Below, piece after piece: positions 3,180 through 27,664 of a DNA stretch of 31,825 nt; position 1 is the stretch's first letter; each line of letters opens with the position of its first letter. The stretch is from IMG/VR virus record IMGVR_UViG_3300045988_159010; one strand, given 5' to 3'. The translations under genes were made by a program, and so were the position numbers. Source of the DNA: a virus. The notes beneath the pieces are model-generated. The model had not been told where the DNA came from, ran no database searches, and worked only from the letters and a program-made list of their open reading frames with translations.

Positions 3180-6100
3180 ATGGCAGCGTCCACAATAAAT
3201 ATAAATAGAGTATATCCGCCTATTGTAGATAGTTCAATACCAGCATTTTTAGCAACTGCGGCCTCTATTAATATAAATTTTTCTTTACCTAAATCATTAA
3301 ATTATGAGGATGTAAAGAATATTTCAATTAAATTTGTATAGCAATCCAATAATAAAAGTATAATTAATACTGATAAATATTGGGATGGTATTATTTATAT
3401 GGAAAAGCCAACTACCTCTACTGATAATGGAATATATACAGTTACTGTAAATAGTTCAGATATTAAATTAGGAGATACAATAGGTTGGATTTCTAATACT
3501 TATTATAAGATTTAGATACGTTTTGGCTATGGAAAAATAGATTATACAGATAAAATTTCATTTTTTAAATGGAAAAAATCTTAGACTGTGGCTGAAGCTT
3601 TTTCAGAATGGTCTAATATTATAATTACTAAAGCAATTGATGATCCAATTGTTGAAATATTAAATAATAAAGATACTTCTTCATTAGATGTAGGATTTAT
3701 TTTAATATCAAGCAATAATGTAGAAGATAGCCGTTTTCCTAAATTTGAGGGAGGATATCAAAGCGATACTGAACCATTGGATAAATATCGTTTTAGATTA
3801 TATGAAGGTAGCTATGATTCAAAAAATCCTCCAAGTTCTGAACCATATTTATAGAGTGATTGGTTACAATATAATGGCGGAGGAAAAGATAAATATAGTG
3901 CTTTAGTCTCTTATAGTTTTAATAGACAATTAGATTAGACTGGAATAAAAATGTATTCATTGATTTTTGATGTTATTACAATGAATAATTATCAAAAATC
4001 TTCTGAATATTATAATTTTACTATTACTGAAAATTATTTAAAATAGTTATAGACTTTAGTATTTACAGTAAAAGATAATACTGAATCTACTGTATTATTA
4101 AATAAAATATCCGGAGCAAATCAAGTTGCTTTTTAGATGTATAAGGAATATTTTGGATTAAAAGGATAGGCTCCTAAATTTATTAAAGGTTATTATGATG
4201 ATGCAGATGGATATAATGCGGGAGATATAATTTATCAAACTGGTAATATTAATGAAGATAATATAGAAACTCATGTATTAAGTAAAATTACGAGAATAAA
4301 AGCAATTGAAGATTTTAGTCATAATTTACGAGCTGATGAAAATGGTAGTTTAGAGATCTATATTAAAAATAATCCTTATGAAGTAAAAGAAAAAATAACT
4401 ATTACTACTATCACTGGAGAAAAGGTAGAACGTGAAATAAATGTAGAAAAGTATCAATCACTTGATGGTACTTTTATTCTATCTAGAGCTTGTGAAACGG
4501 ATAATTATACTTAGTGGAAAGACATAGCTCAATTTGATTGGTATAATGAAACTAATTATGACGATAAATTGACTTTATTATATGAAGATTTTACAGTTGA
4601 AAGCGGAGTCAAATATAAATATGCTTTATAGAAATAGAATGCTGTAGGATTAAGAAGTGCTCCTAAATATGAATGTGATGATATTGATTCATCACCTGCC
4701 CATTGGTCTAATTTTTAGTATAGTTATATTTATAATAATGGTATTCAAGTTCGTTTAGATTTTGATTGTAAAACGAATAGTTATAAGCATACTACTTTAT
4801 TCCAAAAGCAAGATAGCTTAAATTCTAAATATCCAATTATTCTACGCAATGGATTAGCACATTATGCAGAATTTTAGTTAGGTGCTAAAATTTCTTTATT
4901 AAGTGATATTGATTCTTCTTTTTTAATGCGTAATGATGCTAAAGGTGGTTATTATCACAGTTGGTATGGGGATGTAGTTATTTCAAAAGATAAATATATT
5001 AAAACTTTTGAACGTGATTTATAGAATCCATATAATAATGATTATAGTATAAGACAATACAATATCCAAAATGCTTCTACATTTAATACTAATCCAACTA
5101 ATGATAATATATATATGGAACGTATATATAGGCATTGGGTAGAAGAATTTTTAAATGATGGTGGTTATAAATTATTTAAGTCGCCAACTGAAGGAAATCA
5201 TATAGTTACTTTAACTAATGTTACTTGGACTCCTCAAGCTTCTTTATATCGTATGATTTATGATTTTAATTCAACAGCTTATGAAGTGGCTGATTGCACC
5301 CCAGAAAATATTATTTTATATTAGATAAATCCATTAACTACTTTGTCTAATAATTCTAAATTAGCAATTTAGAATGCTAGTACAAAAACTAAAACAGTTA
5401 TTGGGCAAGTAGCTCGAACATTTAATGGAAAATATGCACAGGAAATTACTAATAATAAATTATCTATAATTGATAATAATAAATTTAATCTTACTTATGA
5501 TAATATTTGTAACGCAATAAAACTTCAAGAAGAGCAAGAAATAAGTGAAGATAGAAAATATCGAGTAAGAAGAATAAAAGCGATTTGGATAGAATAGTAT
5601 CCTAAACTAAATCTCAAAAATAAAATAGAATATTTAAAAAATAAAACTAGTTCAACTATGATAGGTCAGTTAACTAATGCAGTTGAATTATTAAGATGTG
5701 AATAGCTTTTATAGGAATATGAAAAAAATTAGAGTAATATTATTACTATGATAATAAATGGTAAAGAAATTTCTATGATGCCCAGTCGTATTTATCATTT
5801 GGATGATACTACTATTGATAGTATGTATTTAAAATTTACTCGTCCTGTTTTAATTAATTATATAGTTGATCTAGAGGAAGAAGATTTCTTAGAAATAGTG
5901 ACTGTTGCTAAACGTGAATTTGCACAATGGGGATAGCTTGGTGGAGTATTTACTGATACTCAAGATATTCTTGATAACCATTAGTTCTTTAGAAATGATG
6001 ATACTTATATAGTTAATGAAAAATACAATTATGGATTATATTCCACATTAAATTTAATGGATATAATAAAAGAAAAAGTACATACTTCTATTTTAAATAA

Positions 6101-6608
6101 TTATAGCGATCAAAAACTTGAATCTACTTTTGATTTATTATATAATAGTATAAATGAATTTTTAGATAAAGTTAAAGATGCTACAGAGTCCATCGAAGAA
6201 TTAGTAATAACTGGTACATAGTTATTAGAAAATTATAGACCTTTATCTGGATTAACTTTAAATAAATAGACTGACGCTTGGATGAATGGTTCAGATCAAT
6301 TAATTATATATAATTTTACTGGTATTGATAGTATCGAAATTGAAGCAGATGCTAATACAGATTTAGTTTTTTATAGAGAGTATGATCTTGATGCAACTAC
6401 TGGTAATTATCATCTTAGTTCTCCTGGCACTCATGTACGTATTGGACCTACTAATAAATTAGTTTTAAATCCTTTGAAAGATGAGATTGTTAAAGTAGAA
6501 TTTGTTAGACCTACTTATGCAATAATTAATTATAAATCTGTTTCGTCTTTAGAAGTTAAAAAAGGTAAGCAGAAAGAAAAAGATGAATCATAGGAGAAAA
6601 CGGAATGA
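3180..6608 (+). CDS. Large virion structural protein (about 1142 aa; tail or baseplate-like), about 30 in-frame TAG
   Basis: RBS AAAGGAGG plus ATG 3180 in frame 0. The ORF-track pieces 3588, 5115, 5748 and 6282 are all in frame 0 and each ends at TAG. Reading through by hand lands exactly on each next piece. Terminates at TGA 6606-6608, overlapping the next ATG (ATGA). Confidence 0.7.
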
Positions 6609-9600
6609 GAGAATATCTAAAAGATAGTGAGTTTTTAACTGCATTAGATGAAATGCGTATAAAAAAACATTATATCAAACTTACCATTTTATCTTTTGTT
6701 GATGAAAAACCTATACGAGAGGTATAGGGTATAGCAACGGCAGGCTCTATTACAGTTAATGGGTCTGCCGCCTTGCGCCGCACGATTAGTCTAACAATTA
6801 GCGGTATAGAAAATGAGAATGACATTAATAATATTGAAAATATTATTTCAATTAATAAAAAAGTAAAAGTAGAGGTAGGGCTTGAAAATCCATTTGCAGA
6901 TTATAAAAACTATGGAGATATTATTTGGTTTCCTCTTGGAACATTTGTAATTAATCAAGCTACTTCTTCTACTACAGCTTCTTCAGCAAATATTTCTATC
7001 TCAGGTAAAGATAAAATGTGTATGCTTGATGGTACTTGCGGAGGTACATTACCTTCAGCAGTTACCTTTCATGAAACACAATATGAAGATGAAAATGGAG
7101 ATATTACAATTGAGCAAGTGCCTATATTTACGATTATTAAAGAATGTGTAACACATTTTGGTAAAGAACCAGAATAGAATGTTATAATTAATGACGTAGA
7201 TATGACAGCTAAACTTAGTACAAAATATATGGGCCAAAATCCTATATGGTTTTCTAAAGATTATAAAAGTTTTGTAATTAGTGAAAACGCTCCTGAAGAT
7301 GAAAATTTTTTATAGCACAAATTTATTTATGGACAAGACGTAGGATATCAAGAAACAGATTTTACTTATCCAGGAGAATTAGTATTTTCTGCGGGAGACA
7401 CAGTAACTTCTGTCCTTGATAAAATTATTGAATCTTTAGGAAATTATGAATATTTTTATGATTTAGATGGTCATTTTGTATTTTAGTAGAAAAAGAATTA
7501 TTTAAACTATTATTATACTCCTATTACAGAAATAAATGATACTTATTATATAAAAGCTTTTTCAGATAGTAAATATTATTATACTTTTGCAAATGCTAAA
7601 GATGCATTATCTTATTATAATAGTCCTAAATATGAAAATATAAAAAATGATTTTATTGTATGGGGCGATAAAACTAATAGTAATGGAGTTACTAAAACTA
7701 TATAGTATCATTTAGCCATAGATGAAAAACCTCAAATTGATTTAGCTAATCAATATATGTGGGATGTAGTTCGAGGTAATGGTGACCATGCTTTTTATTT
7801 ATTTGAGTATAAAAAAAGTAATTATAATTAGACACCTGATAAAAAAGCTTTAGAAATTATTTATTCTGTTAATCATGAAGAAATGGTGGATGAAGTAATT
7901 GAATCTAACATTAAAGAAGATATAATTGAAAATATTTTAAAGAATTATTCTTTTTACACTGGTGATTAGTTTATTTTATATTATAAAATAATATTTTTAA
8001 ATTAGATAAGATATTATAAAATTACTTTATTAGATGGAGAAATTATAGGATTTCAATATCTTGAAGATTTAACTGATATTATTGACTTTACTCATTTAGC
8101 TCTTGGTGTTTATCCTAAAAAAGATGCTACTGATAGTTGGCCAAGTAATAATAATTCTTCTAATAAAAATAATAATAATAAAAATGATAGCTATAAAGAT
8201 GATAATACATTAGATCCGGGTTTTGGTATTCCTACCTCTTGGTGGCGTAAAGGCCAAGGAACTGGAGATTCAGAAAATTATGGTATTATGCTAATATCTA
8301 ATACAAAAGAGTTAGATCCAGATTTTATGGTACCAAATCCAGGTTCCACAGTATTAGATCCTGATTTTATGTTACCAGCAGACCAAGAAAATAATGCAAA
8401 TAAAAATAATAATTCTTCTAATGATAAGTCTGATAATAATAATAATAATACAACGATTAATGAATCTAAAGAATATTATTTAACTATAATAAAAAATATA
8501 GATAATAAAAATATTTTGGGTTATTATGATAGTGAAGGTTAGTGGATTTAGATTTATGAATTAACTGAAGAACTTTCATTAAAAAATATAGAAAATTTTT
8601 TAAATACCATTAAAATTAATTATTATATTAAAATTATTAAAGATATAAATTTTGATAAAGAAAATAAAGATTATGATTTTAATTTTATTGATTCTAATAA
8701 TTTAATTTCCATCAATAATACTATTGTTGCTAGTTATAAATTAATTAGTTACAATGAATCTAAAAAGAAGACAGAATATAGTTATATATTTCCTAATAAT
8801 TATTCAGTAATAAAAAATAAAAATGATGAAACTGTTATTACTGAAGAAGAACATAATGATTTAGTTAAAAAATTATTAGAATATTATAAAACAAATAAAG
8901 ATGATTTAACTTCAGATATTGAACTAATTTATAGTTATAAAGATATGGAAGAAATTCCTAAAGATGATCCATCTGAGTCAAATAAACCTGGCAATTCAGA
9001 AGATAATAAGATACCTGGCCCTACTCCTAGAGATCCAAATTATGGAATTATGCCTTTAGATATTTTAGATCCAGGTTTTACATTAAAACCCAATGAAGAG
9101 AATAATAATAAAGATAATACATCAAATGGAAATACATCGGGAGGAAGTAATTTATTGTTACCATTCTTAGATCCAGTAGATGGTAAAAAAGATTAGTTAA
9201 AAATCTTAGGTGATTAGGAAGATATAATAAAAAAAATTTTTATTTTACGTGATGATGGTAATTATTCATTAAATGAAATTATTGAAGAAATTACTAAAGC
9301 TTATAATTCTAATATTCTTGATTTTTCTACTATTAATGATAATAATAAAATTAAAATTATTACATATACTCCTGAAGAACCTCCTTTTGATTATGAAGAT
9401 AATTTTTATTTTACTTTAATTGGTACTCCTTGTAATGAATGGCGTGAAGAATTATTTAGACAAGCTTTATTAAATAATGAAAATGGCACTCAGAAAGGAG
9501 ACTATGATGATGAATTATTAGCTAAAATAGATGGTGAATACTTGTGGCGTAAACAAATATTTAATCCTTAGAATGAAACTTGGCATGAAGAATGGCGGAA

Positions 9601-13831: not shown

Positions 13832-14239
13832 ATGGATGCTCAATTAGTTGCGCAAATATTTCAAATTTGTATTATTCCTTTACTTGGAATTTTAACGACA
13901 TTCTTAGTTACTTGGATTAAATCTAAAAAGGACGCTTTAAAGCAACAAACAGATAGTGAATTAGCTAAAAAATATTTAGACATGCTTGATAATACAATTA
14001 CTGATTGTGTTATTGCAATGAATTAGACTTATGTTAATTCATTAAAATAGCAAGGAAAATTTGATGGTGAAGCTTAGAAAAAAGCATTTACTGATGTTTA
14101 TAATAAAGTAATTGCTATTTTAGGTCAAGATGCTATTGAATATTTGAATTCTGCTGTTGGAGATCTCAATGAATATATTTCTTCTAAAATTGAGAAAGAA
14201 GTTAATTCAAATAAAATTACTCCAACAGAAACAAAATAA
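13832..14239 (+). CDS. Holin (LL-H / phage_holin_6-like; single N-terminal TM, then charged tail), 135 aa with 3 in-frame TAG
   Basis: RBS AAGGAGG plus ATG 13832. N-terminal TM segment FQICIIPLLGILTTFLVTWI. After TAG=Q the central region reads QTYVNSLKQQGKFDGEAQKKAF, which resembles the conserved core of LL-H family holins. Lies directly after the tail genes and is followed by a strong terminator. Confidence 0.6.
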
Positions 14240-14243
14240 TAAA

Positions 14244-14279
14244 ATGGGAGAACCAATGCGGTTCTCCCATTTTTTTTTA
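14244..14279 (+). terminator. Rho-independent terminator after the holin
   Basis: Perfect 9-bp stem gggagaacc / ggttctccc, loop aatgc, then a run of 10 T. Confidence 0.8.
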
Positions 14280-14401
14280 TGCTTATTTATTATATTAAAA
14301 TGCCCTAAATTTTTTCCCAAAAATTTTGACAAAATTGGGAAATTATTTGACAATAATTTTTATATACCTATGGAAAGAATAAATAAGAAAGGATTTTAGT
14401 T

Positions 14402-14833
14402 ATGAATTTATATCAAGGTTTTGGAAATAATCAAAGTTATTATCAACCACAAAGAGCAAATACAATAATACCTTCAAGTTAGTAGCAATAGCCAGCTTTT
14501 ATTGGGTTAAAAGGTCGGCCAGTTTCTTCATTAGAGGAGGCAAGAGCTGCTGCTATTGATTTTGATGGTTCTGTATTTTTCTTTCCTGATTTGGCTAATA
14601 AAAGGATTTATACTAAGCAAATTAATTTAGATGGAACAGCATCTATGAATATGTATGAGTATAAAGAAGTTCCTACTGAAGCTTTTAATTCATCTAATTT
14701 TGTTACTCGTTAGGAATTTGATGAAACATTAAATGATATTAAAGGTGCATTAAATATGATAGCTTAGTAGACTTAGCAGCAAAAACAATAGCCAAAAGTA
14801 GAAGAACAGTCTAAACCACAGATTAATTTTTAA
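14402..14833 (+). CDS. Hypothetical Q-rich protein (143 aa), 10 in-frame TAG
   Basis: Two TTGACA hexamers lie upstream (14326-14331 and 14347-14352), then RBS AAAGGA and ATG 14402. Frame 2 runs to TAA 14831-14833. With TAG=Q it reads SSQQQQPAF and IAQQTQQQKQQPKVEEQ, where TAG codons are interleaved with CAA/CAG. Confidence 0.55.
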
Positions 14834-14846
14834 GGAGTAATGAATT

Positions 14847-15083
14847 ATGCAGATGAATCCTATGTAGATTATTCAAATGATAAGAAGTGGGTCTAATCCT
14901 CAATAGCTAATGATGTCATTTTTATAGCAATAGAATAATCCAATGGCGAATAATTTGTTATAGATGGCATAGAATGGAAATATTAGTGGAATAGAGCAAA
15001 TAGCACGTAACATGTGTGCATAGAAAGGATTAGACTTTGATAAAGAATTTAGTTCCTTTAAGCAATAGCTTGGAATTAAATAA
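14847..15083 (+). CDS. Small hypothetical protein (78 aa) with 11 TAG codons (14%)
   Basis: RBS AAGGAG (14832-14837) plus ATG 14847 in frame 0, running to TAA 15081-15083. The translation MQMNPMQIIQMIRSGSNPQQLMMSFLQQQNNPMANNLLQMAQNGNISGIEQIARNMCAQKGLDFDKEFSSFKQQLGIK is natural only if TAG is a sense codon. Confidence 0.55.
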
Positions 15084-15109
15084 TATATTTATTAAAGGAG
15101 GACATTTTT

Positions 15110-15961
15110 ATGTTCAACACAAGTAATGGTTATAGTTTAGCTGATATTGCCGCGGCCACAGGCGGTAATGGATACCGTAATGGTGATGATGGTATGTGGG
15201 GTAATGGTGCATGGTGGATAATTATTCTTTTCCTTTTCTGCTTCAATGGCTGGGGCGGAAATGGCTGGGGTAATGGCGCCAATGGTTCTGGATATCAGGG
15301 AACTACAACAAGAGAAGAATTAACTTATGGCTTTGATGTAAGCGACATTAAGTCTGGCATTAATTCTTTACAGACAGGTTTATGTAATGGTTTTGCTGGC
15401 GTTAATAATAATTTATTAACTGGCTTTGCAGGCGTTACTGAAACTTTAAATGGAAATGCTCGTACCTTGCAATCTGATATTAGTAATTTAGGCATGAATG
15501 CTATGTAGAATACTTTTGGTATTACTCAAGCTATTAATGCTGATACTATTGCTAATATGTAGAACACAAACGCTCTTTCTCAGCAATTAAATAATATGGC
15601 AGCAACAAATGCTCATTGCTGCTGCGAGAATAAGAATCTTATTACATCAAGCTTCGCTGATTTAAATTATAATTTAGCAAGTCAAGCTTGTCAAAACCGT
15701 CAAGTAGTTAATGAAGGAGTAAGAGATATTATTGACAATACTAATGCTAGTATGCGTTCTATCCTTGATTTCCTTGTTCAAGATAAGATTGAAACTCTTA
15801 CTGCTGAAAATGCTACTCTTAAAGGTCAAATTTCTCAAAACTTACAGAATGCTTATTTAATAGACCAATTAAGCAGCAAAGCTCCTATCCCAGCTTATGT
15901 TGTTCAAAATCCTTATGCAGGAACTAATTATACTGGATGTGGATGCTAGTATACTGCTTAA
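15110..15961 (+). CDS. Gly/Trp-rich membrane protein (283 aa): GNGWG repeats, one TM (WWIIILFLFCF), Cys-rich C-terminus. 3 in-frame TAG
   Basis: RBS AAAGGAGG plus ATG 15110. ORF-track pieces 15110 and 15596 are both in frame 2 and are joined through TAGs. Ends at TAA 15959-15961. Confidence 0.55.
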
Positions 15962-15981
15962 TAAAGAAAAGAGGTTAAAAA

Positions 15982-16401
15982 ATGGAAATAACAGCTAATG
16001 CTTTACAAACGGTAAATGCCAATGGTAATGTAGTGTTTACTAATACCGCTGTTCCAGGTAGTTGCGCCATGGTTCATCGTGAAGGTAGCGGATTAGTAAC
16101 TTTACGAGGCATAACTAATCAATGTAGAGCCAGATTTAAGGTTACTTTTGGAGCTAATGTAGCTCTTCCAACTGGTGCAACTGTAGCTCCTATTTCTTTG
16201 GCAATAGCTATTAATGGGGAGCCTGTTGCAGAAACTACAATGATTTCAACTCCAACTGCAGTAGAATAGTTTAATAGTATTTCTCGTGCTTTATTTTTAA
16301 ATGTTCCACGTGGATGTTGCCAATAGATAAGTGTTGAGAATACCAGTGCTTCTGCCGTCAGTGTTGAAAATGCCAGTCTTATTATAGAAAGGGTGGCTTG
16401 A
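15982..16401 (+). CDS. BclA C-terminal-domain-like (C1q/TNF-fold) protein, 139 aa, 2 in-frame TAG
   Basis: RBS AAGAGG plus ATG 15982. The C-terminus ...SVENASLIIERVA closely parallels the Bacillus BclA / collagen-like exosporium protein C-terminus ...SIIIEKVA. The IAINGEPV segment matches the BclA beta-sandwich region IQVNGVPV. Ends at TGA 16399-16401. Confidence 0.55.
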
Positions 16402-16403
16402 CT

Positions 16404-16955
16404 ATGATGGAAAAATTATGTTAGATTAAAAATAGTTTAATAACTTTAGTTGAATAGCAAATGGCTAATCCTCAACAAGCAGATACCCATGAAATGGGAG
16501 AAGTTATTGATATGATTAAAGATTTGGCCGAAACTTGTTATTATGGATCAATCGTAGATGCTATGATAGGGAGTAAGGAAGAAGAAATTTATGGCATCGG
16601 TATGATGAAAGACCCTCGTAAACGTAAAAATCCATATCCTTATTATGTAAATAATGATTATTATGAAGATAAACATTATGGTAAGGATTATGATGGCGGA
16701 TATAACGGCTATAGTTATACAGGCACAGGCGGAATGAATGATGATAGTAAAAAAATGGGCCATAGCCCAATGAAGCGTAAATCTTACATTGAAAGTAAGG
16801 AACATCATATGGACTAGGCCCAATAGATGAGAGAGCTAGAAGATTATGCCCAAGTTCTAACTTCTGATCTTTTAGAAATGATTCAGGATGCTACTCCTGA
16901 AGAAAAACAATTATTACAAAGAAAGATAGCCACATTAGCTACAAAAATTGTATAA
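16404..16955 (+). CDS. Tyr/Gly/Asp-rich protein (183 aa), spore-coat-like composition. 6 in-frame TAG
   Basis: ATG 16404 lies 2 nt after the preceding TGA, in frame 0, and runs to TAA 16953-16955. It contains the ORF-track piece 16461-16817. Composition example: NPYPYYVNNDYYEDKHYGKDYDGGYNGYSYTGTGG. Confidence 0.5.
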
Positions 16956-16960
16956 GAATA

Positions 16961-17000
16961 AAAATAAGGGGAAGTAATTACTTCCCTTTATTTTTTTTAT
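16961..17000. terminator. Bidirectional rho-independent terminator at the convergence of the + and - modules
   Basis: Palindrome gggaagtaattacttccc with an A-run on the 5' side and a T-run on the 3' side. It therefore works as a terminator on both strands. Confidence 0.8.
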
Positions 17001-17002
17001 TC

Positions 17003-17434
17003 TTATACATCATGGACAGGTAATTGGATTGCCCGTTCATAATAAGTCTTTGCTTGACCATTTCCGCCCAAGCTAGTATAAACTTTATAAAATTCTACTA
17101 ATTGTTCGTACTCACCATTTGTCATAAATCCTTGCTGGATATATGCTTTACATAATTGAGTCAATCTAAAACGATAAGAAGCTAAAATTACATCCATATG
17201 ATTATTTGCAATTTTATTGCTTTCTAGTACATACTTTCGTAATTCTTCAATTTCTTGACGAATTGGCTCAATATGAGTTTCAATTGTATTATCTAAAGTA
17301 CTATTCTCTTTTTCTTCAGTTAGTTTTTTATAAGTTTTCATTTTGCTATGAAGATGTTTGCAGAAAGCTAGGGCGCCCGCAGAAATTAATCCAAAAATAA
17401 TTTCAAGCAGATGTGTTGTGATAAATTCTAACAT
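17003..17434 (-). CDS. Hypothetical membrane protein (143 aa, N-terminal TM helix)
   Basis: Complete ORF with no internal TAG. RBS GGGAGGA. TACAAT and TTGGGA-like promoter elements lie upstream. TM segment LLEIIFGLISAGALAF. Confidence 0.5.
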   Translation of the reverse strand: MLEFITTHLLEIIFGLISAGALAFCKHLHSKMKTYKKLTEEKENSTLDNTIETHIEPIRQEIEELRKYVLESNKIANNHMDVILASYRFRLTQLCKAYIQQGFMTNGEYEQLVEFYKVYTSLGGNGQAKTYYERAIQLPVHDV

Positions 17435-20168: not shown

Positions 20169-20512
20169 TCTATAACCTCCCAAGAACAACAATATAAATC
20201 ACAGCAAGGTATAATTACTTGTTCTAACATTTCTTCATTATCATAATTTTTAGATATTTTTACCTTATTAAATCTATAACCTCTAACGTTATGTTTTATT
20301 GGAGTCCATATCCATTGTTCATTATTTTCTTGCCATTCTATACGGGTTTTCGATATTCTAATTGGTGTAATATTATTTTTATTCAAATAATCATAAACTT
20401 CTTGGGAATTATCCGTTATATAAGCACATATTACTATCTAATTAGAACAAGGATATTTTCTTCCTTCTTCCTAATTAAAATAGTTAGCTAAATCATAAAT
20501 TGAACGTCTCAT
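20165..20512 (-). CDS. Small Cys-rich hypothetical protein (115 aa) between nrdD and nrdG, 2 in-frame TAG
   Basis: ATG 20512 overlaps the nrdD TGA (ATGA). C-terminus CCDLYCCSW. The ORF-track piece 20165-20386 is its 3' part. Confidence 0.45.
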
Positions 20513-22773
20513 TCCATCTACCCCGTATGCTTTACTCGTGCTTCTACTTCTTTTTGCTTGCCATAATTAAAAGCTGTTTTGTAGTTTCCAGTTAAATAAC
20601 CAGTTACACGGCGTAATTGCTAGATATTAGTACTGCCGCATTCAGGACATTTATCATTAAATTCATCACAATATCCGCAATCAAGACAAGTATCATTAGG
20701 CACGTTTACTGCGAAATAAGGAATATCCTTATCCATAGCATAATTAACAATTTGTTCAAGAGCATCAATATTGTGTTTTACGGTGGAATCTAATTCTACG
20801 TATGTGATACATCCAGCAGAAGAATAACCAGTCAATTGGCTCTCAATGTCAATCTTATCAAAAGGTGACATTTTTTTCCAAACGGGAACATGAATACTGT
20901 TAGTAAAAAATTCTTTATCAGAGACATTAGGGATAATACCATATTTCTCTTTAAATTTAGTCATTGCCGTATAGCATAAATTTTCAGCAGGAGTGTAATA
21001 AACTCCAAAATTAAGTTTAAATTGTTCTTTTGCTTTTGCACAGTAATCTTTAAACATTTGTTCAATTCGTTTCGCTAATTCCATACCTTCTTTAGTTGTA
21101 TGGTCTTTACCAATAAGAATCTAAAGAGTTTCTGCTAAACCAATTTGTCCAATGGCTAATGTGCCATGCTTAAGGGCACTTCTAATTCCTTCTTCTGGAA
21201 TATAGCCAGCCATTAAATTATTTTCATACATAAATTTAGCAGACTTAGGATCTTGAGAGCAAATCCAATCAAAACGCTCCATTAATTGAATGCGAGCTTC
21301 ATTAATTTTTCTATTTAATAAAGCCATAAATACTGGAATAATATCTTCTTCTTGCCCTTCTTCTTCACATTCTTTTTTAGCAATCATAGCTAAAGTAGGA
21401 AGAATAATAGTTACTGGACAAATATTACCACGGCCATCTTTTAACTAACCGAAACCGTTAATATCGTACCCATTGGCTGTTCTGCATCCCATTGTAGAAA
21501 AATAGGTGCGGGGGTCATTGATGTCATATCCAGCGTTCCCTGACCAATCAACATTTGCATAGTTGGGATATAATCTTTGGGCGGTGGACTATAGTGCGAG
21601 TTTAAACAAATCATAATTTGGGTCACCTGGTTCACGGTTAACTCCTTTCATGCATTGGAAAATACCACAAGGGAAAATAGATGTTTTATGCAATTTACCA
21701 ATACCTTCAATAGATACATCTAAAAGTGCTTTAGTAATCATTCTTCCTTCTGGAAGAGTACAAGTACCATAATTAATAGATGTGAAAGGTAATTGATTAC
21801 CAGAACGAGATTGTAAAGTATTAAGGTTATGATACATACCTTCTACTGCTTGATGAACTTCTTTTAAAGTCATATCCATAGCGTATTGATATACTTTATC
21901 AAAATCTCCAGCATCATCTGCTTCATTTAGATAAGCTGAATAATTATTAATCGGAATATCTATGATTTTTTTATAGGTATCGCTATCTTCTAAATAGTTA
22001 TCTAAATTCCAATTACAATTGCATAAGTATTTCATACCATCACGATAATGCTTATAAAAAGATTTACGAACATAAGGAACCATAGTCCAATCAAGATGGG
22101 TCGCACTAACGCCACCAAATTGAGAAAGACTTTGAATTTGGAAAATAACAGCCACTAATTGGAAAGCTGTATTTACTGAACCTGCTGGACGTACATCTGT
22201 CTGGCGTGTATTAAATCCTTTAGCAAGTAAATCATCAAAAGGTACACTTAAACAATTATGAGAACCAACATAATAAGCATCTAAATCATGAGTATAAATT
22301 ATATTTTCTAAATGATTTTTGCGTGTCATAGGAGATACAATATAATCTAAAGCTAATTGTTTAGTTACTACACTACTGGCTTCACCAATACGGCCACCAA
22401 ATGATGCTTCATCTACATTGGCGTTTTGATTTTTAATATCTTTGCCATCTAATTTTTTTCTAATGGCTTGGATAAAATCATCTTTCTTTTGTCGTGCTAC
22501 TTCTTTTTTATATCTATATCTAATATAAGCTCGTGCAACATCACGTCGTTCTGACTACATTAAATAATCTTCAATTATATCTTGGATATCTTCTACTTCA
22601 ATACTACCATCTGGACATTTATTTATCCAAGATTCAATATCATTGGCAATATCAGTAGCTGTATCATTTTCATATAACTATCCATCGATTTCTATAAATG
22701 CCTTATTGATAGCATTAATTATTTTATTTTTATCAAATAATACAACTGTACCATCACGTTTAATTATATACAT
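20509..22773 (-). CDS. nrdD: Anaerobic ribonucleoside-triphosphate reductase (754 aa) with 7 in-frame TAG
   Basis: RBS GGAGG plus ATG 22773. N-terminal ATP-cone MYIIKRDGTVVLFDKNKIINAI. C-terminal Zn-ribbon CLDCGYCDEFNDKCPECGS, then the glycyl-radical motif RRVTGYL just after a TAG. Ends at TGA 20509-20511. The ORF-track pieces 21589-22329, 21121-21387 and 20620-21084 are all in this frame and are separated only by TAG codons. Confidence 0.85.
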
Positions 22774-23683: not shown

Positions 23684-26600
23684 TTATTCTTCATCTTCTG
23701 CTACTCCTTGATATCGTTCACTTCTTAAAATTAAATCCCCATTTGATTGAATAGTGTCAATATGATAAAGTTGATGACCAGCAGTTGAGGCATATTTTTT
23801 AGCGATGAAATCATCGCCTGAACGGATACCTTGAACTACAATCATATTGCCCCGATTAAACCAAGATTTTTCAATAATTTTTTTAGTTCCATCAGGTTGT
23901 TTTTGAGAAATTTGTTTATCGAATAATGTAAAATATTCTTTTCTAAATTTTACATTTACTACTCCTGTTGGAGTAAGAATTGTTACAATACTTTTATTTT
24001 TATTTTTAGCAATACAAGTACCGCATAATTTAGATAAATAATAAATATTTATTGTTTTTCCAGCTTTAACAAAACTTCTTTCTACTACTGGATCTTCAGG
24101 TAAGTTATAAAAATCAGCGAAGCCATATTTACTTTGATTAACTTGAGCCAATTCATGTTCATGATAATAGAAGCATAATACTTCCATTTCCCAAGCTGAA
24201 TAATTTACTTTAGGACAATATTTTTTCCAATCGTCTTTAAATATAATTTCATTTAATTTATTTAAAATTTCTTTTTTATTATCAGCAATTTGTTTACGAT
24301 AAATATCCATCCAACCTTGATAAACTTTATCATTCCAATCTTTAATATTTAAATAAAAATTAGAATCTTTACTCTGAATTAAATCATCTTTATCAATTTT
24401 TTGTAAGAACTCAATAGCTCTATCATCCAATTTGTAATAAACTTTATCATATTTACAAATTTGTTTTAAATAACGAGTAAATTCATAAATGTGTAAAGCT
24501 TGCTGCCGTTCAAGAGTATCTGCAGGAAGAAGATTGAATTTCATTAAAGTAGCTAAATTTTGAAGATTAAGATTTTTCTTTTTATCACAAGTTTCCCAAA
24601 TATACCAGACCATACAAAGTTTTCTATCCATCATATGATCAAATGCTCCCCCTTTAATAAGTGAAATCATTGCTTGCTTATTAGGATTAACCTTATTTAA
24701 AAAATCTCTTGGGGATTTATAAGGTCTATTTTCAATAATAGTTTTAACTACATCATCACCAACATTTAGCATACCTTTTAAGCCAAATAGGATTTGATTA
24801 TTTTCAACGTCAGGAATAAAACTAAATTCTGATTTATTAATATCAGCAAGGCTTACTTGAATACCAGCTTTACGAATATCTCCAATAGCTTTAGCGATCT
24901 TTCCATAGTCAGTAGAATTAGTTTTTCTTACTTTAGATTTTTTATCAGGCAAATCTTCAAAAGTAACTCCATTAGCTAAATCATCTGCTTCTGGATCATA
25001 AATATCTACAATTTCTTCTTCACTATTGTCTTCCAAAGATCCACTATTAACAATCAGACAAGCACAATTCCAATAGATAGGATTATAATGAATAACAAAA
25101 TAAATCATTTGAATAGCCACAAAAGAATAAGGAAGAGAGTGATTTAAGCTAAAAGCATATCCTAATTGCGGTGCAACTGCTGTTTCCCAGAAATATTCTG
25201 CATCATTTTTATTATTAAAGCGACTAAATACTTGTTCTTTTAATTGAGGAATCTTAGCCATTTGTTTTTTAGCAACAACTTTACGAGCTGAATTAGCTTC
25301 ACCCAATGTAAAGTGTGCTATATCCATAAGGATTTCCATCATTTGCTCTTGTAAAGGGCAACAACCATAATATTTATCACAATGTTTATGGAATTTATCA
25401 ATAAGCTCTTGCGGCAAATGATGTTGTTTCATTTCTTGATCAAATGCTTGGATACCTTGATGCTGAATACGATAAAATCTATCTTGTTGTGATTCCTTAC
25501 CTTTTTCAGACATAAGACGCATCATGGCATTAGCCGCAGTCATTTCCATAGGATCTTGTGGTTTTAGTTTTTTAGCAATCGCTAAACCAACACCAGTAGA
25601 GAACTAGAAGCAGTCTAATACATCACCGGCTGCAAGATGATCCCAAATGCTTTGATCTGTTGTATCTATTACTTCTGGATGAATATATTGATTATAAAAA
25701 TCTCTTAAAGATAAGTCAGGAATTTCTTTTGCCTTTAATAATAATTCATAACAAGTAATAATTTTGTCAGAAGCTTCAGTAACAAGGAAATCATATTTTG
25801 TATCACCTGCTGCTTCAGCTTGATGTAAATCCCAACAAGTAATTAAACTGCCACTAGGCGTTCTCATAAATGCTGCTGTATCATATGGGTCATCACCATA
25901 AAGAATAACACCGGAAGCATGAGAAGAACGTTTATTAACAATACCACCAATATAAATAATTATATCAAGAAGACCTGGGTATTCATTTACTTTATTAATA
26001 AATGTTTTTACAGGCTTTCTATCTTTTTCTTCATTACCATAAATAACATCATTAATTTCCCATAAAAATCCACGCTCTTGCGGAATAAGAGAAGACATAT
26101 ATTGGGCTTCATCTACATCAATACCATTTGGATAATCATCAGATCTATAACCTCTACAAGCCGTAAGAATAGCAGATTTAGTAGTTTCAGTACCAAATGT
26201 AGCTACCTGAATTAATCCTAATTCTCCACGTTCTTTACGGATAGCTTCAAAAATGGCTGGACGCTTTGAAGGAGCCAAATCAATATCAATATCAGGCAAT
26301 TCAGCTCTCTCTTTATTCAAGAATCTCCAATATGGTAAACCCCATCGAATTGGATCCAATTGGGTTATTCCCAATAGATAATTAGATAAGAAGCCTGTGG
26401 CCGAACCACGTCCAGGACCTACTATTGAGCCACAATTCCAAAACAAATCAATATAATGTTTAAAAGTATTAAAATAAGCAAAAAGGCAATCATCTAATTT
26501 TTCGCCAATATCTCTTATAATATCAGCTTCAATTTCAAGACGAGCTAAATAATTTTCATTATAATAAAGTTGTTTTTCTTGTAAAGCTTTAATACATTCA

Positions 26601-27664
26601 TTTATCCAATATCGTTCTTGAATATTATCACTATTAATTAAAGAACAAATAATAGGATATTTATCAATCCATTCTATAGGGATAAAACCTTTTTTATAAT
26701 CTAATACTTCTACTTTTGGAATTATTTGTTTTCTCTCAAGAGAAAAATCTTCAATTTTATTTTGAATTTCAAGAGTATTATTTAAAATTTCTTTAGCTAT
26801 TTCTTCTGGTTGTTCTTCAATATCTAAATATATAAAACAAGGGACAATTAATTCAAAAACTTCATCATAAGTCATTAAATGAGCAAATTCATAAAACTTG
26901 TCAACTTCTCGTTCTCCATCTTTTGAATTAAGATAAGCTTTATGAATTGGTCTATCTTCTTTCGTTAAATAATGGCTATCAGTAGCAACTTCTACTTTAA
27001 TTCCATATTTATGACCGATTTTATAAATCATATGGTTTACAAGTTTTTGATCTGCCGCGGTCGATGGAGCAATTTCTAAATAGAAATCGTCACCAAATAA
27101 GTCTTGACAGAAAGTAAGAAAAGTATCTATTTGTTTTAAAATTTGATACAATTCATAATTATTTTCTTGTTCTTTATATTCTACAGCTTTTAAAAGACAA
27201 GTACCTAATTCTCCACCAATACATGCAGTAGTGGCAATTAAATGCCCCTTATATTTCTCTACTACTGATTTTAATTCATTCTTTAAAAGTGGAACACGTT
27301 CCATTTTTCTATCAACATATAAATTTTGCCAAGCAATTGAGCTTAATTCTTTTAATGCTCGATATCCTATAGCATCTTTAGCAATTAAAATAAAATGGTA
27401 ATACTTTTGTCCTGTGCTTCTATCATCAGTTAAATAAATTTCATTGCCTAATGCTATTTTAAAATTTGGATATTTTTCTTTGATTTTTTTAGCATATTGA
27501 TTTACTGTCATATGAGCAGAAAGACTTTCGTGATCTGTGATAGCAATTCCCGAAAGTCCTAATTCAATAGCTTTATCAATTAAAGTTTCTGGCTTATTTA
27601 TACAATCCAGTAAACGGAGGTTCGAATAATCAGTATGATTATGGCAACCAAAATAAGTATTCAA
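23684..27664 (-). CDS. dnaE: DNA polymerase III alpha subunit (DnaE-type, N-terminal PHP domain), 1326 aa. One gene containing a single in-frame TAG at 25604-25606
   Basis: PHP motifs HNHTDYS and ITDHESL. RBS AAGGAGG plus a TTG start at 27664. ORF-track pieces 25604-27664 and 23684-25549 are in the same frame. The 18 codons between them (FSTGVGLAIAKKLKPQDP) have no stop. Ends at TAA. Confidence 0.85.

Follow-up and report, generated by a model that had tools for sequence, protein, structure and literature searches.

Proteins that share the jelly-roll fold of C1q, TNF and the C-terminal domain (CTD) of BclA are normally trimers. In BclA proteins, this domain is combined with a collagen-like region and an N-terminal exosporium-targeting segment, and ExsFA/BxpB is a stand-alone TNF-like protein of the exosporium basal layer (7r1m, 8d02). 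In phages, the same fold class sits atop a trimeric stalk in the tail fibres of cyanophages A4 and A-1(L), TM4 gp23, PRD1 P5 and the Sf6 tail-needle, where stalk and knob form a single polypeptide of an essential virion organ. Morons of temperate phages such as gtrABC, sie and ltp are autonomous units that lie at a prophage end or by the integrase and include a membrane protein. The i-spanin Rz and class I viral fusion proteins possess an N-terminal membrane anchor, long helices and conserved cysteines. Here, we describe a cassette of five genes (g1 to g5) located at positions 14402 to 16955 of a 31,825-nt stretch of viral DNA (IMG/VR virus record IMGVR_UViG_3300045988_159010; the whole stretch analysed is hereinafter referred to as the window). 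The cassette encodes a stand-alone protein of the BclA-CTD/C1q/TNF type (g4), a membrane-type, Cys-rich helical protein (g3) and three small partners (g1, g2 and g5). An earlier interpretation of the window made from its letters alone (the sequence-only reading) had regarded these genes as a post-holin accessory cluster with spore-surface-like products.

As judged from its sequence, the cassette is a self-contained, horizontally mobile operon of the moron type that forms its own unit after the holin gene. It resembles gtrABC, sie and ltp in its autonomy, in its occurrence beside integrase genes and in its membrane protein, but differs from them in lacking a glycosyltransferase, a lipoprotein and any homology to them, and in being fixed also on the late strand of large phages with their own replication genes. 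The cassette and its boundaries comprised the following features:

14402-14833, plus strand, g1 (143 aa, eight in-frame TAG codons)
14847-15083, plus strand, g2 (78 aa, eight in-frame TAG codons, 10% of its codons)
15110-15961, plus strand, g3 (283 aa, three in-frame TAG codons)
15982-16401, plus strand, g4 (139 aa, two in-frame TAG codons)
16404-16955, plus strand, g5 (183 aa, four in-frame TAG codons; starts 2 nt past the g4 stop)
13832-14239, plus strand, holin gene outside the cassette (135 aa, one N-terminal transmembrane helix, three TAG codons; phrog_13712, E 4e-29)
14241-14273, plus strand, intrinsic terminator between the holin gene and the cassette (stem of 14-15 bp, then a T-run)
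14326-14354, plus strand, promoter-like site 5' of g1 (TTGACA, 17-nt spacer, GACAAT)
16960-16995, no single strand, bidirectional intrinsic terminator that closes the cassette at the site where opposing transcription converges and the GC skew changes direction

The five-gene cluster proposed in the sequence-only reading was found to be real: once TAG was read as glutamine, the region contained five co-oriented, closely packed open reading frames (ORFs), separated by gaps of 13, 26, 20 and 2 nt. In comparison with strain L003 (95-97% identical), the ratio of nonsynonymous to synonymous substitution rates (dN/dS) was 0.15 for g1, 0.06 for g2, 0.09 for g3, 0.05 for g4 and 0.10 for g5. These low ratios, together with the thousands of homologues of g1, g3 and g4, indicate that all five ORFs are genuine genes under strong purifying selection. 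The 163-nt spacer between the holin gene and g1 was near-identical in L003, although dS in coding sequence was 0.1-0.39; this conserved spacer and the terminators on both sides indicate that the cassette is its own transcription unit. Promoter-like sites in the region were no more numerous than in shuffled sequence, and the site at 14326-14354 is a weak candidate promoter, its one support being the conserved intergenic region. A sigma-70 consensus (TTGACA-17-TATAAT) at 15666-15694 on the minus strand, antisense within g3, was rejected as probably a chance match because both hexamers were altered in the 95% identical L003 and the DNA is AT-rich. No Rfam families or tRNAs were identified in or near the cassette. 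At curated thresholds, Pfam, NCBIfam and PADLOC returned nothing for g1 to g5, and PHROGs returned only families of unknown function.

The GC content across the window was 22-35%, and gene calling with the standard bacterial code broke the plus-strand half into short ORFs, truncating g3 at 15508 and g4 at 16269. When TAG was treated as a sense codon, a continuous plus-strand gene set was recovered, and translation of the cassette requires that TAG be decoded as Gln. TAG was exchanged with CAA/CAG in both directions between the window and L003, and in-frame TAG codons occupied alignment columns dominated by Gln in relatives, such as the nearly invariant Q115 of g4; on these grounds the window phage is assigned to genetic code 15, with TAG decoded as Gln. 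The number of TAG per 100 codons was 1.5-3.4 in tail genes, 5.6 in g1 and 10.3 in g2, and 0-0.9 in most early genes checked (1.8 in RuvC). Concentration of TAG recoding in late genes for structure and lysis is known in gut phages (bioRxiv 10.1101/2021.08.26.457843). The window phage resembles the code 15 gut phages of Borges et al. (bioRxiv 10.1101/2021.08.26.457843) in this enrichment and in belonging to a clade that mixes recoded and standard-code members, and its likeness to the 'Agate' clade lies in genome size and bidirectional GC skew. It differs from the code 15 gut phages in that no suppressor tRNA(CUA), nor any other tRNA, was found within the 31.8 kb covered.

The structure of g4 was predicted as a monomer from a database homologue with 98% identity. 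The model was confident (predicted local distance difference test [pLDDT] 90.8, predicted template modelling [pTM] score 0.83) and all-beta. The fold covered nearly all of the 139 aa and formed a ten-stranded beta-sandwich that superposed on C1q, TNF and BclA-CTD structures. In the Foldseek search, the top PDB match was the tip domain of F-BclA (9h38; E 5e-7, TM-score 0.73-0.75), followed by the BclA CTD (1wck; E 1e-5), and then EDA and ExsFA/BxpB. Among predicted viral structures, the best matches were stand-alone phage proteins of 135-142 aa, one of which had been auto-named 'BclA protein'. Structure prediction therefore agreed with the stand-alone C1q/TNF fold that had been proposed for this product, BclA-type domains being the best matches, and the modelled fold adds a further member to a known superfamily. 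The likeness to BclA itself held at the level of the fold but not of family membership, since neither a sequence-level match nor a collagen-like region was found. Searches of g4 against Pfam and NCBIfam gave no match, the alignment profile retrieved no BclA from PDB chains at E <= 1, and the identity to 1wck and 9h38 was 16-21%. The protein has no GXX repeats and no exosporium-targeting motif, its N-terminus (MEITANALQTV) running directly into the first beta-strand. Unlike BclA, it contains an invariant GCC motif and is encoded by phages whose hosts are mostly not known sporulators. With ExsFA/BxpB, g4 shares 9-11% identity and no homology detectable at the sequence level, and its genomic context is different; unlike ExsFA/BxpB, it gave no sign here of forming a lattice or of holding a collagen-like protein in place.

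A scan of 1.84 billion representatives yielded 839 clusters of g4 relatives at 50% identity. The best 150 of these 839 clusters contained proteins of 71-196 aa, all stand-alone and without fusions. At 90% identity, the homologues formed 6751 sequence clusters, and not one of these carried a Pfam domain or a telling name. By analogy with its fold family, g4 is probably trimeric. In the clade of large phages related to the window phage, g4 retained 60-76% identity, whereas tail proteins and RuvC were about 30% identical, which argues against a host-range determinant and is more in keeping with a partner or lattice that is itself conserved. Some Firmicutes phages encode, in the position of g4, a small and non-homologous beta-rich protein that has a Cys motif near its N-terminus; replacement proteins in the g4 slot were found in Bajarodcaudo virus 5, CPD1, Dulem virus 36 and cr116_1. 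The idea that they are diverged g4 proteins was discarded, as no similarity was detectable in the two tested (Dulem virus 36 and cr116_1).

At the N-terminus of the g3 protein, a conserved peptide (MFN..GYSLSDIAAA) precedes a Gly/Asn/Asp spacer, after which comes a hydrophobic segment, GAWWIIILFLFCF, that lies between GNGWG-type repeats and is the sole strongly hydrophobic one in the cassette. Within the hydrophobic stretch AWWIIILFLFCF, W35 and W36 were invariant, and a Gly/Trp spacer follows. Beyond this spacer, about 180 residues are predicted to be helical; they are rich in Asn and Gln, carry repeated xxNTxx motifs and include a nearly invariant CCC motif at residues 170-172. The C-terminal part contained a conserved PAYVVxNPY motif and a Cys-rich tail with GCGC at its end. 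The features of a GNGWG-repeat membrane protein with a Cys-rich tail, as noted in the sequence-only reading, were thus all present in g3. The AF2 (AlphaFold2) model was of low confidence (pLDDT 51), so that only its secondary structure, with helices at 35-45, 77-130 and 135-254, was usable. The protein matched phrog_16490 (E 9e-36) and had more than 7700 homologues (90% identity clusters), which likewise lacked Pfam domains and informative names. In sequence and profile searches against PDB chains, the alignments of g3 and g4 gave no significant match. Both proteins were poor in charged residues (11-12%) and in Lys (1-2%), compared with 21-25% and 7-11%, respectively, in tail and early proteins. 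This composition, together with an abundance of Ala, Gly, Thr and Val in both, accounts for the rise in GC content to 34-35% at this place. Two other ideas about g3 were abandoned: a double-glycine leader at its N-terminus is improbable, GG not being conserved across the alignment, and it is not related to gp29, the head fibre of crAss001, which is an Ig-like dimer of 118 aa (PMC10172136).

The g1 protein consisted of a Gln/Asn/Tyr-rich N-terminal tail, a conserved small domain at about residues 36-117, which may be beta-rich as judged by eye, and a Gln-rich C-terminal helix. It matched phrog_21718 (E 9e-7) and had 4717 homologues (90% identity clusters), present in Clostridium perfringens phages and others, none of them with a Pfam domain or an informative name; a variant with 97% identity to the g1 of the window was found on 682 contigs. 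In some small phages, a protein of 125-131 aa is encoded directly 5' of g1 (L001, 7068-7445; L002, 6337-6717; L109, 4964-5359) and shows a Cys-peptidase-like signature (NPNP..EDCAVRA...H) without a Pfam match. The g2 protein was Met/Gln/Asn-rich and helical-looking, and had no family match at the curated thresholds of Pfam, PHROGs and NCBIfam. The idea that the g3-type proteins of crAss-like and Bacteroides phages begin with a fused g2 was considered and rejected (hhalign probabilities 0.6-1.4%). As for the two Q-rich proteins of the sequence-only reading, the composition was confirmed (13% Gln in g1, 18% in g2), but it is largely a product of recoding, TAG encoding 8 of the 19 Gln residues of g1 and 8 of the 14 of g2. 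As a caution for annotation, the standard code fragments the five genes, and the Q-rich appearance mostly reflects TAG recoding. The TAG codons of g1 include those for aa 27, 28 and 30. In g5, conserved, helix-like N- and C-terminal ends flank a variable low-complexity centre rich in Tyr, Gly, Asp, Lys and Arg; homologues share both ends and differ in mid-protein, and the 15 Tyr residues are in the central segment. The Tyr/Gly/Asp-rich composition given in the sequence-only reading was correct, and the likeness to CotG goes no further than composition: g5 matched no family in Pfam, NCBIfam or PHROGs, hence no coat protein, and its DNA contained a single 18-nt repeat of 2.2 copies in place of CotG-type tandem repeats.

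Relatives of g4 were detected on at least 577 IMG/VR contigs, and 77 IMG/VR loci with cassette genes were surveyed for gene content. All five genes were detected in 58 of the 77 loci, the order g1 to g5 being fixed; a holin gene was present within three ORFs upstream in 33 loci, and an integrase or recombinase gene in 11. The carriers included phages of about 110-200 kb and temperate phages of 30-60 kb, with a g3-type variant in crAss-like phages. In the large-phage clade (contigs of about 110-200 kb), the same five genes occurred in the same order, followed by convergent genes for a transmembrane protein and RuvC, and many of these relatives also had a holin gene ahead of the cassette. The identity to the window was 47-62% for g1, 45-65% for g2, 35-78% for g3 and 30-42% for g5, and recoded as well as standard-code members were present. 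One half of what the sequence-only reading had named as the mark of ordinary virion components, conservation at the same position in related phages, was thus seen. The transmembrane protein of the window (17003-17434, minus strand) has 143 aa, an N-terminal transmembrane helix and no TAG codons, and matched phrog_4257 and phrog_4105 (function unknown); many phages of the clade likewise have it interposed between RuvC and the cassette.

The cassette was located after the lysin gene in Butyrivibrio phage Ceridwen, between the lysin and integrase genes in Dulem virus 33, directly after the integrase gene in Dulem virus 39, between the minor capsid and scaffold/capsid genes in Dulem virus 35, after the holin and lysin genes in Bajarodcaudo virus 5, and directly after the receptor-binding protein gene in Dulem virus 36; a partial cassette was found in C. 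perfringens phages. With its own terminators and its varied positions in unrelated phages, the locus bears out the earlier suggestion of a moron-type cassette. Proteins of the g3 type were also found with different small partners in several crAss-like phages, where they are annotated as 'spike protein/glycoprotein', as well as in Bacteroides phage C3_41T2LP, on which no literature was found, and in a virus assigned to Methanomassiliicoccales. A parallel cassette was observed in phages of Bacteroidota (L042, crAss-like cr116_1, 4719-7203; L043, Bacteroides phage C3_41T2LP, 5653-8422). It comprised a g3-type protein, a beta-rich protein of 136-180 aa with a KCGC/KCCG motif, a protein of 168-177 aa that resembles a beta domain joined to a coiled coil, and an acidic, Arg/Tyr-rich protein of 74-77 aa, and small HExxH proteins were encoded nearby. 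In 62 of the 77 IMG/VR loci, g5 was followed by a gene for a zincin-type HExxH peptidase of about 105 aa with weak matches to DUF6782, Peptidase_M78 and SprT-like families (among L045-L124; e.g. L105, 8156-8479, and L104, 8081-8395). It looks like a sixth cassette gene in most carriers; no trace of it was found at 16956-17002 of the window.

We regard the cassette neither as a stand-in for an endolysin nor as an imitation of a spore coat. The interpretation that we favour, with a probability of roughly 35%, is that it encodes a membrane-anchored stalk-and-knob complex at the envelope of the infected or lysogenic cell. In such a complex, g3 would insert in the cytoplasmic membrane via its short, Gly/Trp-flanked hydrophobic helix and would bear a long helical stalk that is rich in Asn and Gln, probably forms a trimeric coiled coil, and includes the CCC motif and the Cys-rich C-terminal tail. 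The jelly-roll of g4, as a trimer, would form the knob and contact g3, the two making up the core pair, and g1, g2 and g5 would act as small partners of low-complexity or helical character. Anchored by g3, the complex could mask or remodel the envelope, exclude other phages or protect progeny. We infer the trimeric stalk, the contact between g3 and g4, the membrane location and the envelope function; we prefer an envelope complex because g3 has a hydrophobic anchor, because the cassette is not tied to one virion type and because it occurs next to integrase genes. Several observations weigh against it. By eye, with no predictor run, g1, g2, g4 and g5 showed no obvious N-terminal signal peptide; these four proteins should therefore remain cytoplasmic, which fits poorly with a place on the outer face. 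If g3 is inserted N-in/C-out, its Cys-rich tail and g4 would be in separate compartments. At 11-13 residues, g3 has a short hydrophobic core, and its model has the low pLDDT given above. In addition, the cassette lies directly 5' of scaffold/major capsid genes in Dulem virus 35 and the crAss-like cr116_1 and directly 3' of the receptor-binding protein gene in Dulem virus 36, it is fixed on the late strand in the large-phage clade, and folds of the g4 type are common at virion fibre tips.

A role in the virion, as a fibre or decoration, is nearly as likely as the envelope complex. On this view, g3 would supply a stalk in the form of a trimeric coiled coil, with g4 as the knob at its far end and the two linked via their Cys motifs. 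Assembly would be cytoplasmic, g1, g2 and g5 would serve as adaptors or chaperones, and the product would be carried on the capsid or tail as a fibre or decoration or, alternatively, as ejected proteins that insert in a membrane. The apparent lack of signal peptides in four of the five proteins fits cytoplasmic assembly, and the richness in Cys and the same low-charge composition of g3 and g4 suggest a shared final environment. The late-strand position after tail genes in the window, the abutment on capsid or receptor-binding protein genes in the three phages just named, and the fold of g4, typical of fibre tips, point in the same direction. Like the described phage knobs, g4 belongs to this fold class, and a coiled-coil-like protein (g3) is encoded next to it. 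Unlike them, g4 is a separate, highly conserved protein of 139 aa, the candidate stalk carries a membrane-type hydrophobic segment, and the cassette is portable between phage types. The very hydrophobic WWIIILFLFCF is hard to fit in a soluble fibre, one cassette serves phages of unrelated morphologies and sizes, often by the integrase gene and distant from structural genes, and g4 is much more conserved than tail proteins, unlike receptor-binding tips. No virion proteomics was found in the literature covered, which did not include the Ceridwen publication.

Less likely is an accessory function in lysis or egress, with g3 acting like an i-spanin or a fusion protein that disrupts or fuses envelope layers at the last step of lysis, aided by the other four proteins. 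The putative anchor, the cysteines and the long, heptad-type helices of g3, the helices being predicted from a low-confidence model, would suit a spanin; the best PDB match of its profile was the HR1/HR2 fusion core of coronavirus spike, at a non-significant E value of 0.044, and other annotators label g3 relatives as 'spike protein/glycoprotein'. The holin-proximal position in 33 of the 77 loci and the location after lysis genes in Ceridwen, Dulem virus 33, Bajarodcaudo virus 5 and cr116_1 would also agree with such a function, but this slot is at the same time the end of the late operon, a frequent insertion point for accessory genes, and many phages place the cassette by integrase or capsid genes instead. 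The window shows no endolysin gene after the holin gene, whose product matched the Pfam LL-H holin family weakly (E 0.021), and in the sequence-only reading the five genes were taken to fill the endolysin slot. That view found no support, because no hydrolase domain was present in g1 to g5 (Pfam, PHROGs and NCBIfam), a strong terminator separates the holin gene from the cassette, and the cassette follows a normal lysin gene elsewhere. Moreover, most carriers appear to infect single-membrane Firmicutes, the phages of which need no spanin. Unlike the i-spanin Rz, the cassette has no lipoprotein partner (no lipobox ORF was seen in or beside it in a visual check, with no dedicated predictor) and contains four extra proteins, and g3 shows no significant sequence similarity to i-spanins or fusion proteins.

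It is improbable that the phages build a Cys-cross-linked protein layer or fibre that is exosporium-like by convergence or distant ancestry. Its parts might be a BclA/ExsFA-like trimer (g4), a Cys-rich stalk (g3), Tyr/Gly- and Gln-rich linkers and, usually, the small metallopeptidase. If true, a layer built in the dying cell would coat virions or membrane remnants and could serve persistence in the gut or adhesion, and phages that infect Firmicutes, Bacteroidota and perhaps also methanogenic archaea would have it in common.

A phage-borne defence or counter-defence system in a moron slot is very unlikely. Such a system would be consistent with a multi-gene cassette that lies beside integrases, moves between unrelated phages and is commonly followed by the zincin-type peptidase gene, but PADLOC 2.0 gave no match (g2 reached a non-significant E value of 0.018), no nuclease, NTPase or similar enzyme was found, and the proteins are of a structural kind, with a jelly-roll, low-complexity segments and long helices.

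Regarding hosts, g3 and g4 were present together in a phage of Butyrivibrio fibrisolvens. Butyrivibrio, including this species, is non-sporulating. One group of carriers infects C. perfringens, which is a spore former. The metagenome-assembled genomes (MAGs) that contain the nearest relatives were labelled as Mollicutes, Anaeroplasmatales and Bacilli; L018 and L021 belong to the MAG CAMELE01 ('uncultured Mollicutes bacterium'), and L019 is labelled 'Anaeroplasmatales'. Together with the GC content of 26%, these bins hint at a host of low GC content and of the Bacilli/Mollicutes type, although the bin in which a phage contig lands is weak evidence. All 24 matches in the genome collection were metagenome bins; the mapped loci carry homologues of RuvC, holin and tail proteins, a few short loci having been checked for g3 and g4 only, and every context examined was a phage genome or a phage-like contig. 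The proposal of the sequence-only reading that the cassette mimics a spore surface, or by lysogenic conversion changes the coat or exosporium of spores that a Firmicutes host forms, is scarcely credible: exosporium proteins (F-BclA, BclA and ExsFA/BxpB) head the structural matches of g4, the Cys-rich and Tyr-rich partners recall, by composition, ExsY/CotY-type and coat proteins, and C. perfringens is among the hosts, but the idea fails because carriers infect non-sporulating Butyrivibrio, g3-type variants occur in Gram-negative Bacteroides and in crAss-like phages, the nearest relatives lie in MAGs with the labels given above, the genome-collection matches lie in bins whose mapped loci bear phage genes, and no sequence-level match to a coat or exosporium family and no CotG-type repeats were found.

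The cassette is a sizeable piece of the dark matter of the gut virome, and no function was assigned to it in the libraries or literature searched. Its five-gene order is kept across phages that are otherwise about 30% identical, and it also moves between unrelated types, being present in hundreds of gut phages that are not related to one another. The firm fold of g4, a BclA/C1q-like protein, predicted to be trimeric, beside a putatively membrane-inserting, Cys-rich helical protein, offers an entry point, and the cultured carriers fall into three groups: Butyrivibrio phage Ceridwen, C. perfringens phages of the CPD1 type and Bacteroides phage C3_41T2LP.

The window phage, a gut phage with a genome of about 186-192 kb, is very common in public metagenomes; no near-identical DNA relative of the window was found among GenBank phages. 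Upstream of the cassette, the plus strand encoded five large proteins of 233-1199 aa, one of which matched a tail-protein family. On the minus strand, early genes run toward the cassette and encode RuvC, dUTPase, NrdG, NrdD, guanylate kinase and DNA polymerase III alpha. The cumulative GC skew was maximal at about 16900-17100, at the convergent genes and the bidirectional terminator, and could mark a replication terminus or an origin boundary. The gene for DNA polymerase III alpha (23684-27511, minus strand, 1275 aa) contains a lone TAG codon that halves it under the standard code. The nrdD gene is intact in the window (20509-22773, 754 aa); in two relatives (L008, 14948-17724; L010, 14888-18784) it is split by an HNH endonuclease ORF, and the nrdD of one relative additionally carries an insertion of the intein/LAGLIDADG type.

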